From a virus: 64,000 bases of DNA. Shown piece by piece: positions 1-26,797 of the stretch (the stretch's first letter is position 1; each line of letters begins with the position of its first letter). The DNA lies in the IMG/VR virus record IMGVR_UViG_3300044712_001160, positions 3,169-67,168 of that record; one strand, 5' to 3'. Position numbers and translations under genes: made by a program. Under the pieces are notes generated by a model that was given only the letters and a program-made list of their open reading frames with translations, made no database searches and was not told the DNA's origin.

Positions 1-324
1 GTAGACCTTGCTTAGGTCAATGCCGGCTTTGATCAGCTCTTCGCGGATCATCGTGCCCATTCGACCCACGAAAGGTTCACCCGCTTCATCCTCCGTGGCG
101 CCCGGCGCTTCGCCTATGACCATCACGTCACATGGGATAGTGCCCCGACCTGGCAAGCAAACGGTTTTGCAGCCCATTTCGTGAAGTCGGCACCGGGTAC
201 AACCGCTGTCCGATAATGCTAAGGTTAGCTTATCGAAGAAGTCAGTTTGCTTCGAGGACTTCTTGGGTTCTTTCGTTGACGAGGTACCCTGAGGGCGAGA
301 GCCGGAAAACTTCAATTTGGGCAT
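1..324 (-). CDS. Family-4 uracil-DNA glycosylase-like domain, probably the N-terminus of an SPO1-type DNA polymerase (runs off the window edge)
   Basis: Own translation, absent from the ORF track: MPKLKF...GCTRCRLHEMGCKTVCLPGRG...VMVIGEAPGATEDEAGEPFVGRMG. CxxCxL, GEAPG and ED..G.PFVG are family-4 UDG motifs. Confidence 0.8.
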   Translation of the reverse strand, partial: MPKLKFSGSRPQGTSSTKEPKKSSKQTDFFDKLTLALSDSGCTRCRLHEMGCKTVCLPGRGTIPCDVMVIGEAPGATEDEAGEPFVGRMGTMIREELIKAGIDLSKVY

Positions 325-715
325 CGAGAAGCACGCCAATCCCTGTTTTTATTCTGTAAGGAGATTGATAGTATACACGCTGAATGAGTCCCGAGTCAAC
401 GATGGCATTGGCACAATCCGGACATGGATTGCTCGTAACATACAGGTCAAATGGCCCCTGACCCACTCGAAGTTCCATTCGGTCGAGAGCATTGATTTCC
501 GCATGGACCGAACGAACACAACCACCTGTGGGTCCCAACGAACAGCCGTTGCCTTGGCAGTGGGGTTCACCCGAAGGTGGGCCATTGTAGCCGATAGAAA
601 CTGGGTCTCGGTTGTTGCTGATGATGACCGCGCCGACGTTGCCTCGAAAGCAAGTTGATCTTCTAGCAGCCAACTCAGCAATCCCCATCCACAGTTGTGC
701 TCGAGATATCCTCAT
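242..715 (-). CDS. dCMP deaminase
   Basis: RSTC..VGAVI, GYNG, HAEINA and PCPDC zinc-binding deaminase motifs. Confidence 0.92.
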   Translation of the reverse strand: MRISRAQLWMGIAELAARRSTCFRGNVGAVIISNNRDPVSIGYNGPPSGEPHCQGNGCSLGPTGGCVRSVHAEINALDRMELRVGQGPFDLYVTSNPCPDCANAIVDSGLIQRVYYQSPYRIKTGIGVLLDAQIEVFRLSPSGYLVNERTQEVLEAN

Positions 716-767
716 TTGGGCAGTACCTTTCTCCAGGCGAGTATCGCTTCTTTCAGCTCTTGTTCAG

Positions 768-1253
768 TCATGCCATCCCCGGTGATCTGATGCCCCAGTG
801 AAGCAAGCCCTGACGTGTTGCTCGCTTGTAGTCCACGTCTTCATTGTCGCCTATTTCACGAAGCTTTCGCTGTTTGAACTTGACCCAACGACTGATCTGC
901 CGATCATCGTCGGCGTGGCGTCGACCCATGTCATAGCGGCAGTACCACTGAAACCAACCTCGCGGATCGTCGTCGTGCATCCAGCCACGTTGCTGCCAGT
1001 CATGTCGACTCAGCGATGCAAGAACACCGAAATAATTGTCGTCGGGGTTTTCGGCTTCGTTGATGACGTGTCGTAGGTGTGGGAATTCACGGCCAAACTT
1101 CGGATAGCCGCGAAAGTATGCGCCGCCGAAAATGCCCATTCGTAGACATTGCGCGGGCGTGAAGTCAGGCTTGAAATCTGGATCATACTCGCGATTAGGC
1201 GAGACGTGATATTCATAGCCGGGCTGCAACGGGTCAAGGGATTGGATTTTCAT
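768..1253 (-). CDS. Conserved hypothetical protein (FGGAYF / DPRGWFQWYCRY / RQI.RW family)
   Basis: 161-aa ORF with its own promoter. The motif set resembles an uncharacterised family, function unknown. Confidence 0.7.
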   Translation of the reverse strand: MKIQSLDPLQPGYEYHVSPNREYDPDFKPDFTPAQCLRMGIFGGAYFRGYPKFGREFPHLRHVINEAENPDDNYFGVLASLSRHDWQQRGWMHDDDPRGWFQWYCRYDMGRRHADDDRQISRWVKFKQRKLREIGDNEDVDYKRATRQGLLHWGIRSPGMA

Positions 1254-1259
1254 GTCGTC

Positions 1260-1296
1260 ATTCTATGATAACGCGATCTTGACGACAACGCCAATG
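1260..1296 (-). promoter_or_regulatory. Sigma70-like promoter giving a leaderless mRNA for 768..1253
   Basis: Minus strand ATTGGCG-TTGTCG-N17-TAGAAT-gacgac-ATG. The ATG is 6 nt after the -10 and there is no SD. Confidence 0.6.
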
Positions 1297-1303
1297 TTGC
1301 CTA

Positions 1304-1340
1304 AAAGTTGGCGGGAGACACCGCGAAATGTCTCCCGCCG
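1304..1340 (-). terminator. Intrinsic terminator
   Basis: GGCGGGAGACA/TGTCTCCCGCC 11-bp stem followed by aACTTTT on the minus strand. Confidence 0.6.
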
Positions 1341-1389
1341 AAAGATGATGACCAACCTTGGGGTGGGTGGGGCGTCTGCTAGTCGATCA

Positions 1390-1506
1390 TCACCTTTTCC
1401 GATATTTCCAACCACGTGTCGCATGATAATAGCGTTCTCGATCACCCTTGACAATAGTCCGGATGACCCTGCCATATGGCTGGCCTTTGGTGATCCTTTT
1501 CTTCAT
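1390..1506 (-). CDS. Small basic protein (38 aa, YHATRGW motif)
   Basis: Own translation MKKRITKGQPYGRVIRTIVKGDRERYYHATRGWKYRKR. ATGA overlap with the upstream TS-like gene. Confidence 0.55.
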   Translation of the reverse strand: MKKRITKGQPYGRVIRTIVKGDRERYYHATRGWKYRKR

Positions 1507-2360
1507 CGACGGGGTCCTTTCCATTCAATGCCCATTGGGCGGGTGTCATTGATGAACATGTGGAGGCTGGTGATGTGCATGATGAAGAAGCCTGGTCGAA
1601 CCCAGTCCCAGACCTTGGGCCGACGCTTCCGCAGCTGATGCATAATCCACAGGTGAAGCCTGATCGTGAGGTAGCAGTCATCCGCCCAGTGTCGGTAGAA
1701 GTCACACGACCTCATGTAGTAGGTGCAGTGGAAGTATCCGTGGCGGAGGATGAAGTGATAGCCGAGCGTGCAGGGCTTTCGGCCTTGAACGGTAACGTCC
1801 TCCGGGTAGTAGATCGGCAGATATGCTTGGCGAGTGTCGGGCTCTTCGGCCAGCGTGTTGACCAAGTCATTCAGGTCGCCATACTCTGCACGAATGCCCT
1901 GGTGAGCGATGGGCGTAAAGTCGCCCTCAATCTCTTGAGCATACTCTTCGGCCGTTTCCGTTGCGCGTTCAACCACTCCGGCAAACTTCGGCCAATACCT
2001 CTCCATGTAGTTATGGTTGAACCGTTCACCATAAAGGTCCAGGTGGTCGGCGGCGCTATGACCCCAAGGCCACTTCTTCCACTGAACGCCCGGGTTGATC
2101 GGGTATCCACAGACGCGCTCCTCAAAATGGTCGTCAGCCCAAGGCAGGTTGGGCTTGATGTCCTCCCGCCAATGCTCGAGGTCTTCGCTGACCATCATGA
2201 CCCGGAATGACTCGTGAAGCAGTTCGATCATCTTCGCTTCGGGTCGCTGCGAGATATCGACGCCCTGCCACTTCTGACCATGAATGGCTGGGGCCGTGAT
2301 GAACTGCCGGGAAAGCGCCTCCCGGGCATGTTGGAAGTTATTGTAGATCATGAGGCTCAT
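1503..2360 (-). CDS. Thymidylate-synthase-fold enzyme, dCMP hydroxymethylase/methylase-like
   Basis: PDTRQA, catalytic PC (KPCTLG), MRSCDFYRHWADD with Asp at the E. coli ThyA Asn177-equivalent position, and HITSLH. Confidence 0.85.
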   Translation of the reverse strand: MSLMIYNNFQHAREALSRQFITAPAIHGQKWQGVDISQRPEAKMIELLHESFRVMMVSEDLEHWREDIKPNLPWADDHFEERVCGYPINPGVQWKKWPWGHSAADHLDLYGERFNHNYMERYWPKFAGVVERATETAEEYAQEIEGDFTPIAHQGIRAEYGDLNDLVNTLAEEPDTRQAYLPIYYPEDVTVQGRKPCTLGYHFILRHGYFHCTYYMRSCDFYRHWADDCYLTIRLHLWIMHQLRKRRPKVWDWVRPGFFIMHITSLHMFINDTRPMGIEWKGPRR

Positions 2361-3106
2361 TCATCCGTGATGGCGTTGAGGATTAGATCACGTCGATCCT
2401 GTGGATACTTGTCCACAAACTTTTGAACTCGTGCAGCGGTTTGATAGGACTTATACCCTCCCTCCAGATGAATCTTTGTCCATCTGACAACCTGGTGATG
2501 AAACTTTGGGTTTTCCTTCTCCAGTCTTCGAAGGAGTCGTAATGGCTTAGAATGCTCAAGTAGCAGCATGATGTAGAACATCGGGTGAATGGTAGCATTA
2601 ACGAAGCTAAAGGTAATGAAATCGGGAGGGGCTGTTTGGAGATCGAACTGTGGTAGGATGACGTCTCGCAGGAAAATGAGATCGGCTCTGTACCGGAATA
2701 TGAGCTCGACCGTTCGGTATCGGATGAAGATGGACGTGTGCCCCTTGGGCGGGTAATACGCAATGACTCCGGCGGTAAGGCAATAATCTTGCTTAGTAGT
2801 CTTTTTTTCCACTCCTCGGAAATCCCAAACACCCGAGCCATACTTTCGATCTCGGAGTCGGTCATCCAGGTCACGCTTTGCACGAGCTATCGTCTCCGGA
2901 TTTTCGTAGTGAGTCTTGAGCATCCGTATCTTCGTCGGCGTGAAACCGATAGACTCCGGGGTCATCTCCGTGTCGTTGAGCAACAGTGACGCGGGTATCT
3001 GCCAAGTCAAGTCCTGATAGATCGACTGACTTCCGGCGATAATGTATGGCGGAACTCGGGACTGCTCGCCGACCCAATTACACCACTCCTTAGACAGTGT
3101 TGTCAC
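2357..3106 (-). CDS. Divergent second thymidylate-synthase-fold protein
   Basis: DYCLTAG Cys followed by YRTVELIFRYRADL, which aligns to RSxD-x7-N/D with identical spacing. ATGA overlap with the first TS gene. Confidence 0.55.
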   Translation of the reverse strand: MTTLSKEWCNWVGEQSRVPPYIIAGSQSIYQDLTWQIPASLLLNDTEMTPESIGFTPTKIRMLKTHYENPETIARAKRDLDDRLRDRKYGSGVWDFRGVEKKTTKQDYCLTAGVIAYYPPKGHTSIFIRYRTVELIFRYRADLIFLRDVILPQFDLQTAPPDFITFSFVNATIHPMFYIMLLLEHSKPLRLLRRLEKENPKFHHQVVRWTKIHLEGGYKSYQTAARVQKFVDKYPQDRRDLILNAITDE

Positions 3107-3611
3107 GAAGACTCTCCCGATGGATGTGATCCTCGACCAGGTCAGTGTGCGACGGCGGCTCCCAGCCCTTGGGCTTCACCACGTCATAGGTGGAACCACG
3201 TTTGGACTCGTCGGCGGATTGAGCTCGAACCTTAGCCATGTTGGCTCGGTGAACTCGAGACCAGGCTTCATTGAAATCGAATCCGTGAAGGTGGGCGGTT
3301 CCAAGGGCGACGTATACCAGATCCACCAGAGCATCAAGCTGTAGCTCAAGAAGGTGAGTAACCTCGGCATCGTCCTCAAGGCCTCGAGCGAGAGATGCAT
3401 GTAGTCGATTGGCCGCAGTCTCGTACTCATTCAGCTCCTCTCTCAGGAATTGAAGCCGGAACATCAGGATATCTTCGGGAAGCTGGCGGGGCTTTCCCTG
3501 ATACAGCAGGTCGAACTTCGCATGGAAGCTCCAGATATCACCAACCATGTCTTCACTGTCGCCCGGATCAACGTGGCGAAATGGCTCGTCGTAAGTCATA
3601 CTCTTCTCCAT
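3090..3611 (-). CDS. MazG-like/all-alpha NTP pyrophosphohydrolase (dCTPase/dUTPase-like)
   Basis: LREELNE, LDALVDLVYVALG, VHRANMAK and VVKPKGW motifs. Confidence 0.85.
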   Translation of the reverse strand: MEKSMTYDEPFRHVDPGDSEDMVGDIWSFHAKFDLLYQGKPRQLPEDILMFRLQFLREELNEYETAANRLHASLARGLEDDAEVTHLLELQLDALVDLVYVALGTAHLHGFDFNEAWSRVHRANMAKVRAQSADESKRGSTYDVVKPKGWEPPSHTDLVEDHIHRESLRDNTV

Positions 3612-4087
3612 GCTCGAATTAGGTCTTCGATCACCCGCACATTGTCACCAATGCGGTAGATATGATGCGCGTTCCACACGGCCCAGCGATCATACCAGGT
3701 CATCAGCTTCTCGAAGCCGGCGTCAACCTTGGCCAGATACTCGGGCGTATCCCATTCCCCCGTGGCGGTGTGCGTAACCTTAGCCGGATCGGGGCGGCAG
3801 TAGATCAGCAGCGGCTTCATTCGATAGAAGTCGTTGACGAGCTCGACGTTGGGCTCTGTTTGGCTGTGGATCTGTCGGTATGCGATCTGAGACACGCAGG
3901 GGTGTCGGTCGAAGATCACGTCCTTTCGGTTGGTGTATTCGCGCGCATACCTTAGAATACGCGCGTCAATCTCACCGGGGAATTTCTCGGGGCCTTCGCT
4001 GAGACGAAGTTCATACCCAAGCGTTTGAGCCAGAAGCTGACCGAGCGTCGTCTTTCCACCGCCGTCAGGACCTTCGAGAACTACCAT
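3596..4087 (-). CDS. dNMP (thymidylate-like) kinase
   Basis: MVVLEGPDGGGKTT P-loop and IFDRHP motif. The likely start is ATG 4087 rather than 4441. Confidence 0.85.
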   Translation of the reverse strand: MVVLEGPDGGGKTTLGQLLAQTLGYELRLSEGPEKFPGEIDARILRYAREYTNRKDVIFDRHPCVSQIAYRQIHSQTEPNVELVNDFYRMKPLLIYCRPDPAKVTHTATGEWDTPEYLAKVDAGFEKLMTWYDRWAVWNAHHIYRIGDNVRVIEDLIRAWRRV

Positions 4088-4168
4088 TCGGATACCATCG
4101 CTTTCAGTTGATTTAATCGAATTACCCTTGTAATTTGAAAAACTCACGGAGTCAACAAAGGTGTGACC

Positions 4169-4384
4169 ATGACGATGGTGGTGAACCTGGCGGATTATGT
4201 CACGACCACCGAAGCAGCTAGGCTGTTGGGTATCAACTACCCTGCACTGTGGGCGCGTATCGACCGCGGCCACGTGTCTACACTTCGCGTGGGTCGTTCC
4301 CACATGATCTCCAGAGAAGAAATCAAAAGACTGAGAGAAAACAGCAATGATCCTAATGAGGGTCTGGGCCAAGCAGCCCGGTAA
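4169..4384 (+). CDS. Excisionase-family HTH DNA-binding protein
   Basis: YVTTTEAARLLGI...RIDRGHV...RVGRSHMI pattern. Confidence 0.75.
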   Translation: MTMVVNLADYVTTTEAARLLGINYPALWARIDRGHVSTLRVGRSHMISREEIKRLRENSNDPNEGLGQAAR

Positions 4385-6359
4385 ATACTTCTTCATCTCA
4401 TCGAAAGACCCGGAGGGAAACTGGCACGACGAAGCTTTCACTCGGAAGCAGTTCAGAACAATACCAGCTTACATCAATGAGCTGAAGACTCAAAATATGG
4501 ATGTCTATTGGTGTCCGCATGGGTTCAGTAAGCCACGACGTCTTCGCCGATACGCCCTTATGCCATACCTGTTGTGGGCAGACCTTGATGAAGTAAGTCC
4601 ACTAAGTGTTCCACTACGCCCAACAGTCGCTTGGGAATCCTCTCCGCATCGCTATGCGGCCCTGTGGTACCTCGATGAAATCCTTACTGATGAGCAGCTT
4701 AACCGTAGTTGGACTCACCTGATCGGCGCTGACAAGGGCGGCTGGGATCTTACGCAAGTTCTTCGCGTACCCGGTACCCACAATCACAAGTACCCGTCAA
4801 AGCCACTTGTCAAGCTGATGTGGGATGACCCCGGTATCGTCTATAAAGAAGCCGACATTGCTGCGAAGCTACCCAATCAGGTCAAAAAGAAATCCCCCGA
4901 TCAAGACGTTAAGTCGCTATTCTTCAAGTACAAGAAATACCTATCGCCTTGGGCGCGTCGGGAACTGTTGAACGGTCGGCCACAGAAGGGCAAGCGTTCT
5001 GAGGTTTTCTGGAAGCTCACCAATGAACTCATCGAGGCCGGAGCTGATGAGGACGAAGCATTCCGCATTCTGTGGATGTCCCCCTGGAACAAGTTCTATG
5101 ATCGGCGTGACGGTGAAGATCAGCTTCGCCGGGAGATCAACAAGGTCTTTGAGAATAAACTCGACGGCCCCGATCCAGTAAGCGACTTCAAGAAAGAGTC
5201 GTCCATTGAGCGTGAGGAGGCGGTTGAGCGATCATCCGATATCCGAAATACGCTCATGGGTGCGGTCGAGAATGAAGTTGTCGACTGGATTCAGTACCCC
5301 TACTTCGCGCGCGGTCATATCACGACAATCGAGGGTCAGCCGGAAGTTGGTAAGTCCTGGTTATGTATGGCTGCCGGTGCCGCTATCTCTGAAGGGAAAA
5401 CTGAGTTTCCACAAGATGGTTGGGTTGAAAAAACTCAGAAGGGATTGGTGTTCTACTTCGACGCCGAGAACATGTCGGGCAACGTAGCACTTCGAATGCA
5501 GGACAGCGGCATGCTCACGAAGGTTACTAACCCCGATGACTCAGCACCCTTCTTCCATATTCCACCTGAAGTGTTCTCCCCATCGCTGGGTGATCCGCTC
5601 TGTCTCGAGGAGTTCATTACCTTTGTGGATGAGGTTCGAGAGGTATGGAAGAACAACAAGGGTTACCGTGATGACATAGCCATGATCGTCTTTGATACCC
5701 TTATCAACTACTCAGGCGTTACAGATACGAACAAGCAGGGCGATGTGATCCAGGTGATGAACAACCTGAAAGAGCTTGCCGTCCACTTCAACTGTTCCGT
5801 CGTAGCGATCCGTCACCATTCAAAAGCAAGCCGTGACAAGGACCCGATGCATCGTGGTATTGGCTCAGCTCAGTTCGGCAACTCTGCTCGTATCGTCATC
5901 GGCGTCTACAAACACCCGGACGACGACTACACTAGGATCGCTACACTTGGGAAGAACTCGCTCGCTCATACGGCTAGCATTCGAGCGCTGTCGTATTCGC
6001 TGGAGCGCGTGTTCCCGGGCAGCACTGACATTGCTAAGCGTGACCGAACCCGGATGGTGTGGAATGGCTACGTCGATATCACCGACGCCGACCTCACACT
6101 AAGCTTTAAGGAACGTGAGGAACGTCAGTCTGAGGTGAAGAAGGACAAGGAGATCCTCGCCGATATGATGAACGAGCTAGAGGATCGCTTCCGCACTAAC
6201 GGTCACCCCGCGAAAATACCGCTGAGTGAGATCCGTATCAAAGCTAATCAGACTAATATACCCGAGGTGAGCAACTGGTCAAGGGCCCTCGCTCCTCTCG
6301 GGTATGTATGTGAAGGACGTGGTAAAAACGTCTACTACACTCGTGTCACTCCACGATGA
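4347..6359 (+). CDS. Primase-helicase (RepB-like primase plus AAA_25/RecA-like helicase)
   Basis: LWADLD, WESSPHRYAALW and LRVPGTHNHKY primase motifs, Walker A GQPEVGKS, Walker B IVFDTL, and HHSK. Confidence 0.88.
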   Translation: MILMRVWAKQPGKYFFISSKDPEGNWHDEAFTRKQFRTIPAYINELKTQNMDVYWCPHGFSKPRRLRRYALMPYLLWADLDEVSPLSVPLRPTVAWESSPHRYAALWYLDEILTDEQLNRSWTHLIGADKGGWDLTQVLRVPGTHNHKYPSKPLVKLMWDDPGIVYKEADIAAKLPNQVKKKSPDQDVKSLFFKYKKYLSPWARRELLNGRPQKGKRSEVFWKLTNELIEAGADEDEAFRILWMSPWNKFYDRRDGEDQLRREINKVFENKLDGPDPVSDFKKESSIEREEAVERSSDIRNTLMGAVENEVVDWIQYPYFARGHITTIEGQPEVGKSWLCMAAGAAISEGKTEFPQDGWVEKTQKGLVFYFDAENMSGNVALRMQDSGMLTKVTNPDDSAPFFHIPPEVFSPSLGDPLCLEEFITFVDEVREVWKNNKGYRDDIAMIVFDTLINYSGVTDTNKQGDVIQVMNNLKELAVHFNCSVVAIRHHSKASRDKDPMHRGIGSAQFGNSARIVIGVYKHPDDDYTRIATLGKNSLAHTASIRALSYSLERVFPGSTDIAKRDRTRMVWNGYVDITDADLTLSFKEREERQSEVKKDKEILADMMNELEDRFRTNGHPAKIPLSEIRIKANQTNIPEVSNWSRALAPLGYVCEGRGKNVYYTRVTPR

Positions 6360-7568: not shown

Positions 7569-8159
7569 TCAGCCTGGTTCGCCACTGGACGATTGGCGGA
7601 CGTTTTCCGGGGACCTCCCTTGAGAGAAGGCCTCGTCGATTGTAGAACATAGATGAATTACCTCCCGTGCTTGATGCACCGCATCCTCGATGGCGCTGTG
7701 GGGCATCAGGTTCTTCACCGGCGTTTCCACATGGGGGCCGGCGATCAGCTTCAGCGTCCGAAGGTCATGGATATTTCTGAAACCCCACGGCTCCGGAAAG
7801 AGCTTCCTGAGGATCGGCAGGTCGAAATGGGTGCCTTTCGCCCACACCAACGTGTTCTCCGTCGCGAGGCCGTTCCAGCAGTCGGACATGTGCTTGACTA
7901 CCTCGACCACTGACTTGCGTTCGGCCAGCTGCTGACGCTCATACGCCTCGGGTTGGGACAGCCACCACTGAAGAGTATCGGCTTCAACGCTGAATCCCAT
8001 TTCAGCCTGTTCATTCAGGTCGGGAAACCATGACCAAGACCAGATGGTGCGCCAGCGATCCTTGCGGTCGAAGAAGCACCAGCCAATCTCAAGGATCGAC
8101 GCATTAGCCGTAGTGCCAAGCGTCTCCAGGTCGATCATCAGGTCGGTGTAGTTCTTCAT
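7569..8159 (-). CDS. DEDDh 3'-5' exonuclease (ExoVIII/DUF5051-like)
   Basis: MIDLETLG, WAKGTHFDLPIL, DLRT and HSAIEDA motifs. Confidence 0.85.
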   Translation of the reverse strand: MKNYTDLMIDLETLGTTANASILEIGWCFFDRKDRWRTIWSWSWFPDLNEQAEMGFSVEADTLQWWLSQPEAYERQQLAERKSVVEVVKHMSDCWNGLATENTLVWAKGTHFDLPILRKLFPEPWGFRNIHDLRTLKLIAGPHVETPVKNLMPHSAIEDAVHQAREVIHLCSTIDEAFSQGRSPENVRQSSSGEPG

Positions 8160-10057: not shown

Positions 10058-10723
10058 TCACCTTCGTGATGAAGCGGTATTGGCTATCCTTGTGCTGGAT
10101 TGGGTATTCGTCGCTCGACTTCGCCGCCCAGGCTCCTGCAAAGTTCTTTTCTTCATAGTAGTGCATACGACTCTCCATTGCACGGGGTTCAAGAAGTGCT
10201 CATGAACGTCACAGCTGAAGATCATGGGCATGTCAGTGATATTGGCCTCATCGAGCCAGAACGGCGGAGGTCTACGTGTCCACACGGGTTGCTTGGTATC
10301 GAACATCATCCGACAGCGGAGATAGTAACGATACGCAAGGTGAGTGTCTTCGATGAAAGTGAAGTCGATCCGTCGGCCGTCGTCCGTTGTTCGGGTGGTA
10401 CGGGCGCCATTACGGAAGAACTTCGGCTTCGCGGGACCGTGACTACGCATCGCTTGACCGACGTCCACGAAGGATTTGTGGATCTTTCCGAAGCGGTAGA
10501 AGTACTCGGCAGCGAGGGCATGATGAAACTCCACGAGCCAATTCAGGTTCTGCTTACACCAAGCAGTTGTCGGGTTGTTCTGGTGAACCGGCCGGTATGT
10601 GGGCGTGCCAGTGATCGTGCAATAGAGCTGCGCCGTTTCAAGGGTCATCTTGTTGACCCGCTTGTCATCCATAGCTACAGCGCTGAGCCACGGATCAGGG
10701 TGAGTGCACTGAATGTTGACCAT
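10058..10723 (-). CDS. Pyrimidine-dimer DNA glycosylase / endonuclease V family
   Basis: MVNIQ...DDKRVNKMTLETAQL...YRPVHQNNP...EYFYRFGKIHKS...AYRYY...WTRRPPP.W, typical of the Pyr_excise family. Confidence 0.75.
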   Translation of the reverse strand: MVNIQCTHPDPWLSAVAMDDKRVNKMTLETAQLYCTITGTPTYRPVHQNNPTTAWCKQNLNWLVEFHHALAAEYFYRFGKIHKSFVDVGQAMRSHGPAKPKFFRNGARTTRTTDDGRRIDFTFIEDTHLAYRYYLRCRMMFDTKQPVWTRRPPPFWLDEANITDMPMIFSCDVHEHFLNPVQWRVVCTTMKKRTLQEPGRRSRATNTQSSTRIANTASSRR

Positions 10724-10920
10724 TACTTCTGGTTCACCTTCACCTTTTCGGGTTTCGGAATCTCGATGGTGTAACCGATGATGTAGTCGCACGGCTTGCA
10801 CTTACGCCGCCGCCAAATTGTTGGCCAGCCGTCGTATCGCGTGGTACCCGTGTCGATCACGCTTGATTTCTTGCCACAAATCGGGCAGGTGATCATGTCT
10901 CTTATCTGGTCAGCCATAGA
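10723..10920 (-). CDS. NrdR-like zinc-ribbon protein
   Basis: CPICG.KSSVIDT...IWRRRKCKPC...TIE resembles the NrdR N-terminus. Confidence 0.6.
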   Translation of the reverse strand, partial: SMADQIRDMITCPICGKKSSVIDTGTTRYDGWPTIWRRRKCKPCDYIIGYTIEIPKPEKVKVNQK

Positions 10921-25789: not shown

Positions 25790-25986
25790 ACTACAGGCAC
25801 CTGAAGTCTGGCGGTGAATACGAACTGCTGCTAGTCGGTCATGACGAGGCCACGCTTAACCCGATGGTCATCTACCGTTCGCTAGATGATGAGGAGATCT
25901 GGTGTCGGCCGGCAAAGGAATTCTTCGACGGCCGGTTTGTACCCATCAATGAGAGACTTGAACCCAGGAGCGACTATGAGAACTGA
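25786..25986 (+). CDS. DUF1653-family protein
   Basis: YRHLKSGGEY...E.T..PMVIYRSL...WCRP..EF.DGRF. Confidence 0.8.
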   Translation: MNYRHLKSGGEYELLLVGHDEATLNPMVIYRSLDDEEIWCRPAKEFFDGRFVPINERLEPRSDYEN

Positions 25987-26797
25987 AATCGGAAATCACG
26001 GCGTGGTGAAGCTCATTGACTTCATGGGCAGGGACGATGATATCGTCCACGCGGCGAGAGTCAGCTATGACCCGGCGAGCACCACGATCAAGCGCGACGG
26101 CCGTGGGCTCATTCGGTACCTGTACCGGAACAAGCACACTACGCCCTTCGAAATGTGTGAGCTGAAGTTCTATATCAAGATGCCCATCTTTGTAGCTCGC
26201 CAGTGGATCCGTCACCGGACGGCCAACATCAATGAGTACTCCGGCCGGTACTCCGTGATGAAGAACGAGTTCTACATTCCCAATGAGGTGAGAGTTCAGT
26301 CCAAGTCGAACAAGCAGGGCAGCGATGGTCGTATGACCCTGGACGAAATGATGAAGTTCGCTTGGGACGATACAGCAGCCGACGCATTCGAGATCTACAA
26401 CACCCTCGTGAGCGAAGAGGTTGGCGTAGCTCGTGAGCTGGCGAGGATTCACCTGCCGCTCAGCACCTACACCGAGGTTTACTGGAAGATCGACCTGCAC
26501 AACCTGCTTCATTTCCTGAAGCTTCGGACGGACCCCCACGCCCAGCTAGAAATTCGGCAGTATGCCGACGCCATGGAACAAATGGTGTCTGTGTTGTATC
26601 CGCTCGCGTATGAGGCCTGGGTCGACTATTCCAAGGAGGCCTACAATATGAGCCGGATGGAGCTGGTGCTTCTGCGGTCTCTGGCTAGCTCGCGCGATCC
26701 GTCGATTCTTCGGGGTCATCTTGAACCTCATGCCAAAGAGCTGGGCATGACGGATCGAGAAATCGCCGACTTCCTCAAGGTACTTGGGGTCGAATAG
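25976..26797 (+). CDS. thyX: Flavin-dependent thymidylate synthase
   Basis: AARVSY, HTTPFE, ARQWIRHRTANINEYSGRY (RHRx7S signature), RELAR and AQLEIR. Confidence 0.95.
   Translation: MRTEIGNHGVVKLIDFMGRDDDIVHAARVSYDPASTTIKRDGRGLIRYLYRNKHTTPFEMCELKFYIKMPIFVARQWIRHRTANINEYSGRYSVMKNEFYIPNEVRVQSKSNKQGSDGRMTLDEMMKFAWDDTAADAFEIYNTLVSEEVGVARELARIHLPLSTYTEVYWKIDLHNLLHFLKLRTDPHAQLEIRQYADAMEQMVSVLYPLAYEAWVDYSKEAYNMSRMELVLLRSLASSRDPSILRGHLEPHAKELGMTDREIADFLKVLGVE

Follow-up and report, generated by a model that had tools for sequence, protein, structure and literature searches.

The window considered here, a stretch of 64,000 nucleotides covering bases 3169–67168 of the 67,168-bp IMG/VR record IMGVR_UViG_3300044712_001160, comes from a complete virus record with direct terminal repeats, that of a complete 67-kb tailed phage, and begins with a gene cassette in which two coupled open reading frames (ORFs), ORF1 and ORF2, encode proteins of the thymidylate synthase (TS) fold. 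We found that ORF2, the divergent member of the pair, accompanies ORF1-type genes in many phage loci, and that several of the loci lacking it carry a gene for a C5-cytosine methyltransferase instead. We consider it moderately probable that the cassette is a pre-replicative cytosine-replacement module and that ORF2 is a second active cytosine-C5 enzyme, interchangeable with a C5-cytosine methyltransferase. The recognition of the pair as a widespread linked unit, as well as the replacement of ORF2 by a C5-methyltransferase, goes beyond an earlier reading of this DNA made from its sequence alone (the original prediction). The two genes are as follows:

1503..2360, minus strand: ORF1, TS-family enzyme of the cytosine type, 285 amino acids (PF00303, phrog_160, and PDB alignments)
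2357..3106, minus strand: ORF2, divergent TS-fold protein of an unnamed family, 249 amino acids, GTG start (AlphaFold2 model and Foldseek)

The original prediction had proposed translational coupling of these ORFs, and its coordinates hold, with the ORF2 stop and the ORF1 start joined by an ATGA overlap. It had also placed an Asp exactly 11 residues beyond a conserved Arg in both proteins, and the motifs that it quoted are indeed present, as ...KPC...YMRSCDFYRHWADD in ORF1 and ...DYC...YRTVELIFRYRAD in ORF2. Regarding the start of ORF2, the GTG is preceded, at a distance of 5 nt, by GGGAGAG. One public gene call begins the protein at residue 48, but conservation among homologues extends over the first 47 residues, with Trp8 found in at least 90% of them.

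The relationship of ORF2 to TS is visible in its predicted structure. An AlphaFold2 model built from a 22-sequence alignment (pLDDT 93.6, pTM 0.90) gave 138 matches at E ≤ 1e-3 when compared with the PDB by Foldseek, every listed one belonging to the TS family, and a VIA structure comparison also matched it to TS-family structures. In a viral structure library, a Pseudomonas phage PMBT14 protein that has not been characterised ranked first (TM 0.85), and TS and dCMP (deoxycytidine monophosphate) hydroxymethylases came next. Thus, the modelled structure shows ORF2 to have a TS fold, and the original prediction, which had suggested a structural comparison of this kind as a check, was right on this point. 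When 1.84 billion representative sequences were searched with a profile of the family, 247 clusters matched at E ≤ 1e-3. An alignment of 78 of them, with 19–56% identity to ORF2, has no more than five invariant columns (Lys59, Tyr67, Cys109, Arg131, and Asp142), and Glu134 is almost invariant; three of the five are the Cys, Arg, and Asp of the motif, which is more than chance would explain. In the model, Cys109 precedes a strand (110–118), Arg131 lies at the end of the following one (123–134), and Asp142 is in the first turn of a helix (138–153), which we take to be the places where TS has Cys146, Arg166, and Asn177. When the profiles of ORF2 and ORF1 were aligned over their cores alone, the register came out as Cys109/Cys197, Arg131/Arg217, Glu134/Asp220, and Asp142/Asp228, at an E-value of 0.13, which falls short of significance. 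The active site of ORF2 is therefore likely to be TS-like and of the cytosine type, as far as the model can tell. Searches of Pfam, PHROGs, and NCBIfam gave no family link for ORF2, none of the 78 family members matches PF00303 at E ≤ 0.01, and ten long ORF2-family or ORF2-like proteins (298–418 amino acids) have no Pfam match that would provide a domain fusion clue. Two records automatically annotate an ORF2 homologue as "pyrimidine hmase synthase". Separately, a 408-residue BFVD entry named as a CMP/dCMP deaminase-domain protein, A0A8S5MQL3, matches the ORF2 model (E 1.4e-05) and is possibly a TS fold fused to a deaminase.

The closest solved fold to ORF2 is that of HY126 AfhB and RB69 gp48, which have a compact TS fold and use dCMP, and one might therefore propose that ORF2 is a flavin-dependent dCMP 5-hydroxylase like these proteins, making 5-hydroxy-dCMP. 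The lead in Z score over MilA (12.1) and ordinary TS (up to 11.6), however, is within the tie range of the tool. Furthermore, according to the available part of PMC13326640 (section 28), a change of Asp169 to Asn is diagnostic of 5-hydroxy-dCMP synthases such as RB69 gp48, DLP3 gp80, and AfhB, and this signature is absent from both ORF1, which has Asp220, and ORF2, which has the nearly invariant Glu134 at the position that motif spacing and fold, rather than a significant alignment, assign to residue 169. Nor did searches of the genome for PF00534 and PF00535 find an arabinosyl- or glycosyltransferase that would use the 5-hydroxyl. We regard this possibility as very unlikely.

The second line of evidence is the linkage of the two genes. 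A pattern search of IMG/VR gave 337 matches, of which 323 encode ORF1 relatives, and we examined the best 80 loci. An ORF2-family gene was present in 66 of them, always on the same strand, lying directly upstream of ORF1 in 39, within 1.5 kb in 22, and further away in 5. The remaining 14 comprise nine loci with 6 kb of upstream sequence and five with less than 1 kb, where an ORF2 gene may have been cut off. Conversely, 61 of 62 loci seeded with ORF2 contain an ORF1-type gene, and in the sole exception, the contig ends 250 bp after ORF2 and has a TS gene at its other end. This second set, which shares many contigs with the first, was seeded with a 25-sequence subfamily alignment, the 22-sequence alignment having yielded a single locus. 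The ORF1-type cassette is common, with 4144 ORF1-related proteins, 323 IMG/VR stretches, and 126 GenBank phage records found by tblastn (all below 60% identity, 75 of them from Gordonia phages). By the same method, ORF2 relatives appear in 8 GenBank phage records, each time just upstream of the TS gene.

Among named phages, the pair was found in Serratia phage Serbin and Yersinia phage P744 (in both of which the upstream gene is unannotated) and in Brevundimonas phage Polewnik, with HH probabilities of 99.9–100%. In actinobacteriophages of Gordonia, Streptomyces, and Microbacterium, the order is kinase, MazG, a hypothetical protein of 290–350 amino acids, TS, deaminase, and PolA, and the proteins in the ORF2 slot match the ORF2 profile weakly (HH probability 41% for Vine gp52, 80% for KimJongPhill gp77, and 66% for Triscuit gp64). 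When the profile was searched against each genome, KimJongPhill and Triscuit gave E-values of 9.3e-6 and 5.1e-5, respectively, and Vine gave no match. The weak alignments of KimJongPhill gp77 and Triscuit gp64 contain a Cys, then Arg-Thr, then an Asp at +11, and these two proteins are probably remote relatives of ORF2, judging from such sequence matches. In Microbacterium phage Triscuit (locus L009), the adjacent gp66, of the ORF1 type, and gp67 are both annotated as thymidylate synthase, so that together with the weakly ORF2-like gp64 this cassette has three candidate TS-related genes.

The loci lacking ORF2 provide the third line of evidence, which amounts to DISPLACEMENT by C5-METHYLTRANSFERASE: the nine loci with 6 kb of sequence upstream of ORF1, corresponding to eight distinct ORF1 sequences, have a PF00145 homologue and no ORF2. 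In four of the nine, Pfam identified PF00145 in the gene upstream; phmmer searches with those four methyltransferases then picked out exactly this set of nine, the ORF2-bearing loci among L015–L155 giving no match. In one of them, L059, the methyltransferase gene takes precisely the place of ORF2, in the order kinase, MazG, methyltransferase, TS, and deaminase. The genes in question are the following:

Loci L059, L060/L061, L065, L070, L076, L088, L090, and L094: divergent C5-cytosine methyltransferase homologues

These proteins have HPEC in place of what we take to be the usual Pro-Cys motif and MDDLP for the presumed ENV motif, together with a Cys-rich C-terminal region. A tblastn search with one of them returned only ordinary DNA C5-methyltransferases (22 records, 22–30% identity) and no cultured phage with the variant. 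In the L094 methyltransferase, about 290 residues are inserted directly behind the catalytic Cys of HPEC, an intein-like position, and that of L076 has an extra C-terminal domain.

As for ORF1, its assignment to the TS family is clear from phrog_160 (2.2e-26), while PF00303 is passed narrowly (29.2 bits for a cut-off of 24.3, E 6.3e-07, over residues 143–221 only). A profile of the ORF1 family searched against solved structures matched MilA (E 7e-07) and ordinary TS best, and T4 gp42 at 3.8e-4. MilA (PDB 5b6d) is a bacterial CMP 5-hydroxymethylase of mildiomycin biosynthesis, which acts on a ribonucleotide and which the accessible literature describes as having Asp at the Leu143 position. A gapless alignment to Enterococcus faecalis TS and MilA puts Pro196-Cys197 of ORF1 on the catalytic Pro-Cys and Arg217-Ser218 on Arg166-Ser167, and makes Asp220, Arg194, and Asp228 equivalent to Asp169, Leu143, and Asn177 of ThyA, respectively. 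Asp228 also aligns with the specificity Asp of MilA itself. The original prediction had recognised this Asp at the ThyA Asn177 position, and the alignment bears it out; Asp versus Asn there is described as the determinant for dCMP versus deoxyuridine monophosphate (dUMP) in the available parts of PMC13326640 (section 24) and PMC8670742. Across 34 database homologues, the key residues of ORF1 vary little or not at all, with Asp220 kept in at least 90% of homologues. Asp228, Arg194, and Cys197 are invariant in all 66 ORF1-type genes compared from related loci, and Pro196-Cys197 and Arg217-Ser218 are invariant in both sets. ORF1 thus departs from a canonical dUMP-methylating ThyA in having Asp228 instead of Asn and in scoring far under the cut-offs of the NCBIfam TS models (24.1 bits at best, for cut-offs of 108–427). 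Because of the published rules for positions 177 and 169, we read ORF1 as a dCMP enzyme and not a 5-hydroxylase, and from these residues we infer that it is a dCMP C5-methylase or hydroxymethylase.

As TS enzymes function only as dimers in which the two subunits share their active sites, one could imagine ORF2 as a regulatory or non-catalytic partner for ORF1, and ORF1 alone would do the chemistry. The tight linkage and ATGA coupling of the genes fit this idea, as does Gln178 of ORF1, which replaces what we take from ThyA numbering to be the second cross-subunit Arg, making help from a partner conceivable. If ORF2 were purely a structural partner, however, there would be little reason for Cys109, Arg131, and Asp142 to stay invariant in 78 sequences with only 19–56% identity to it. 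In addition, the active-site residues of ORF1 are identical in ORF2 loci and methyltransferase loci (27 positions were compared, at which the only differences are single substitutions in L076), so ORF1 is apparently not adapted to a particular partner. A computational prediction of the ORF1–ORF2 heterodimer scored 0.00 in two runs, for a mark of 0.32; it had no controls, and we give it no weight either way. Overall, we judge a purely structural or regulatory role unlikely, and we prefer to see ORF2 as an active second enzyme because it keeps the Cys, Arg, and Asp, is strictly linked to ORF1, and is replaced in some loci by a Cys-dependent cytosine-C5 enzyme.

The nature of the pathway is suggested by the rest of the cassette, all of whose genes are on the minus strand in a row that spans window positions 1–4441, and by a thymidylate synthase of another type elsewhere in the genome. 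The features are as follows:

1..339, minus strand: N-terminal uracil-DNA glycosylase (UDG) domain of a UDG-fused family-A DNA polymerase (PF03167 at 2.6e-07)
242..715, minus strand: dCMP/dCTP deaminase family protein, 157 amino acids (PF00383 at 5.6e-18; phrog_174 at 9.2e-39)
768..1253, minus strand: ORF161, conserved protein of unassigned function, between ORF1 and the deaminase
3090..3611, minus strand: MazG-like (PRA-PH) nucleoside triphosphate pyrophosphohydrolase, candidate dCTPase (PF01503 at 6.3e-11; phrog_671 at 1.5e-22)
3596..4087, minus strand: P-loop deoxynucleoside monophosphate kinase of the thymidylate type (phrog_761 at 3.2e-15; TIGR00041 at 3.6e-08, below its cut-off)
25886..26797, plus strand: ThyX, flavin-dependent thymidylate synthase (PF02511 at 1.3e-54)

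The kinase, pyrophosphatase, and deaminase that the original prediction had seen around the pair are borne out by Pfam and PHROGs, and so is the separate thyX, for which the original prediction gave 25976 and which spans the coordinates listed. A deaminase homologue is found in 72 of the 80 related loci and a MazG-like homologue in 49. The kinase ORF as listed runs from 3596 to 4441, with the P-loop beginning at residue 119 of this long version, and its start is probably the ATG at 4087. In four loci (L016, L019, L026, and L039), the kinase and MazG queries match one ORF, which suggests, from the sequence matches, that they encode kinase-pyrophosphatase fusion proteins.

We propose that the MazG-like pyrophosphatase would convert dCTP to dCMP, ORF1 would add a one-carbon group (methyl or hydroxymethyl) to C5 of dCMP, the P-loop kinase would phosphorylate the modified product, and the UDG-fused polymerase of the phage would incorporate it, while the deaminase and ThyX would maintain the supply of deoxythymidine monophosphate (dTMP), for which the presence of ThyX means that ORF1 is not needed. 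ORF2 would be a second cytosine-C5 enzyme in the same pathway, taking the functional place of the methyltransferase, and it might carry out the reaction of ORF1 on another substrate pool, act on the product of ORF1, or act on DNA. The absence of a glycosyltransferase noted by the original prediction holds for the 38 window ORFs scanned with Pfam, among which no glycosyltransferase family was found, and for the whole 67-kb genome, which has no PF00534 or PF00535 match (the GT1 and GT2 families). The complete genome also has no PF00186 match for dihydrofolate reductase (DHFR), and searches of it found no C5-methyltransferase and no carbamoyltransferase. If all of these are missing, the base is probably finished by ORF1 and ORF2 before replication.

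In phage T4, the corresponding pathway consists of the dCMP hydroxymethylase gp42, the dCTPase gp56, the kinase gp1, and the deaminase cd. The logic is shared, in that dCTP is destroyed, dCMP is modified, the product is phosphorylated, and thymidylate comes from a separate route, and the T4-like set of pyrophosphatase, kinase, deaminase, and ThyX that the original prediction had described is present in this phage. As in ORF1, the specificity position of T4 gp42 is reported, in the available sources, to be an Asp. Unlike T4, however, this genome has no glucosyltransferase that we could find, and it contains a second TS-fold gene.

A closer likeness is to cassettes from metaviromes selected for modified cytosine. 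In the accessible portion of bioRxiv 10.1101/2024.12.05.627091, a deaminase was found within 3 kb of TS in 104 of 149 modified contigs and in 17 of 277 unmodified ones, with TS, PRA-PH, and DNA_pol_A as the commonest deaminase neighbours; of seven associated TS homologues tried in E. coli, five produced 5-methyl-dCMP and two yielded none, and the deaminases could be selective for 5-methylcytosine (5mC). The available text of the MetaGPA study (eLife 2021, PMC8670742) likewise ties a TS neighbourhood to modified cytosine. That neighbourhood resembles the present cassette in its gene set, its order around ORF1, its family-A polymerase, and its Asp177, and differs in that no second TS-fold gene is mentioned in the parts of the paper at hand. 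Because the cassette is of this published kind, we infer cytosine replacement at the nucleotide level. The folds, residues, gene linkage, and mutual exclusion are shown by the analysis; the substrates, the products, and any modification of the virion DNA are proposals. Similarly, in Xanthomonas phage Xp12 and Pseudomonas phage PaMx74, in which 5mC fully replaces cytosine, the TS homologue has an Asp 11 residues after the Arg, as ORF1 does, a dCMP deaminase adjoins it, and a pyrophosphohydrolase or hydrolase lies upstream. Both, however, use a different TS subfamily, and the Xp12 methylase is only 25% identical to ORF1.

It could also be that the cassette merely feeds deoxynucleotide pools and that the cytosine of the virion is ordinary, for instance, if dCMP were converted to 5-methyl-dCMP and then, through the deaminase, to dTMP or deoxythymidine triphosphate (dTTP). 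Indeed, 5mC-selective deaminases have been proposed to make dTTP from 5-methyl-dCTP (bioRxiv 10.1101/2024.12.05.627091, in its available part), the authors of the Serbin genome interpret these genes as plain nucleotide metabolism, and searches of the present genome found no post-replicative modifier of the GT1, GT2, carbamoyltransferase, or C5-methyltransferase type. Nevertheless, dTMP is already supplied by ThyX, a dCTP-removing pyrophosphatase combined with a dedicated kinase is typical of replacement pathways, and the published neighbourhood was located, according to the available sections of PMC8670742 and the bioRxiv study, on contigs that had been selected for modified cytosine. We therefore think it quite improbable that the cassette serves nucleotide pools alone.

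Several observations weigh against a cytosine-replacement module with ORF2 as its second enzyme. The position of Leu143 is described in the accessible part of PMC13326640 as hydrophobic in methylases and Asp or Glu in hydroxymethylases, the class of T4 gp42; ORF1 has its invariant Arg194 there and matches neither class. The rule itself is imperfect, as the proven Xp12 methylase has a polar residue aligned at this position, and the residues of ORF1 do not allow its product, methyl or hydroxymethyl, to be predicted. In the case of ORF2, searches of PDB sequences with the protein alone and as a family profile gave no match, and HHalign against the ORF1 family gave a probability of 1.4%, so that there is no sequence-level homology to ORF1 or to any TS and the residue equivalences rest on the fold, the secondary-structure register, and the motif spacing. 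In addition, Xp12 has no match to the ORF2-family profile and makes 5mC without ORF2, PaMx74 has no ORF2-like gene, going by its annotation alone, and both have a DHFR gene beside the cassette, which this genome lacks. In a quick ORF1 tree, the methyltransferase loci form two groups, of five and three rows, and a single origin is compatible with the well-supported branches; the exclusion between ORF2 and the methyltransferase, striking as it is, may thus reflect only one or two events. Finally, a literature search found no DNA composition data for this phage or its cultured relatives, and the DNA of Serbin was sequenced and closed by PCR using routine methods, which is compatible with 5mC or 5-hydroxymethylcytosine (5hmC) and speaks mildly against a bulky adduct.

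A bolder proposal, which we consider rather unlikely, is that the ORF2 family is a new class of TS-fold, thiol-dependent cytosine-C5 enzymes acting, as do the C5-methyltransferases found in their place, on something other than plain dCMP. The candidate substrates would be 5-hydroxymethyl-dCMP made by ORF1, through a C6-thiol/exocyclic-methylene intermediate, or cytosine in DNA. There is a chemical precedent, as DNA C5-methyltransferases can couple 5hmC with thiols and add aldehydes to cytosine (PMC7176277, in the portion available). Were this true, many phages of Proteobacteria, and probably of Actinobacteria, would contain an undescribed cytosine derivative or a route to one.

Already published are the reading of Asp177 and, as a marker of cytosine-modified phage DNA, the gene neighbourhood of Asp177 TS, deaminase, PRA-PH, and PolA. 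What is new is ORF2 as an unnamed family tightly linked to ORF1-type genes, together with its mutual exclusion with the methyltransferase. A search of full-text literature, a body that leaves supplements and most subscription journals outside, found no second TS-fold gene described for this cassette and the ORF2 family neither named nor assayed. How a phage modifies its DNA governs how sensitive it is to restriction and CRISPR defences, and such modifications are also a source of epigenetic sequencing tools. If ORF2 is a second cytosine-C5 enzyme, the published tests of single TS homologues may have overlooked half of the pathway. The ORF2 family and its exclusion with the C5-methyltransferase are a real, testable lead, the more so as cultured phages with non-pathogenic hosts are available, such as Pseudomonas fluorescens phage PMBT14, Brevundimonas phage Polewnik, and Gordonia phages.

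Some features of the surrounding sequence are worth describing. Megablast found no nucleotide similarity of this DNA to known phages, and a promoter and terminator scan of window positions 1–4600 gave nothing above chance. ORF161 is an insertion peculiar to this phage lineage; none of the 80 related cassettes carries it. Pfam, PHROGs, NCBIfam, and fold searches gave it no match. Its family, which has no name, is large (3084 homologues, some on megabase cellular contigs) and shares the conserved block DPRGWFQWYCRY..GRR..DD.RQI.RW.

The polymerase gene crosses the window start and encodes 879–897 amino acids in the full genome (G000:706–3345 or longer, from the ORF list of the first 3.4 kb), and a DNA polymerase I gene occupies the matching position in 7 annotated relatives. 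It shares roughly 80–100 bp with the end of the deaminase gene, as in the Serbin annotation, and its UDG domain is family-4-like, with a Cys-x2-Cys motif. Phages with modified thymine are the setting in which a recent paper, in its accessible part, reports PolA fused to UDG; in the present genome, such a fusion goes with a cassette of the cytosine type. The window has further replication and repair genes beyond the cassette. Its minus strand encodes a pyrimidine-dimer glycosylase-like protein (PF03013, 8e-05; 10058–10801) and an Rv2179c-like 3′-5′ exonuclease (7569–8159). On the plus strand, at 4163–6359, a small ORF is followed by a RepB-primase/AAA_25 helicase gene, so that transcription diverges from that of the cassette, and the product of this small ORF reads as helix-turn-helix-like by eye.

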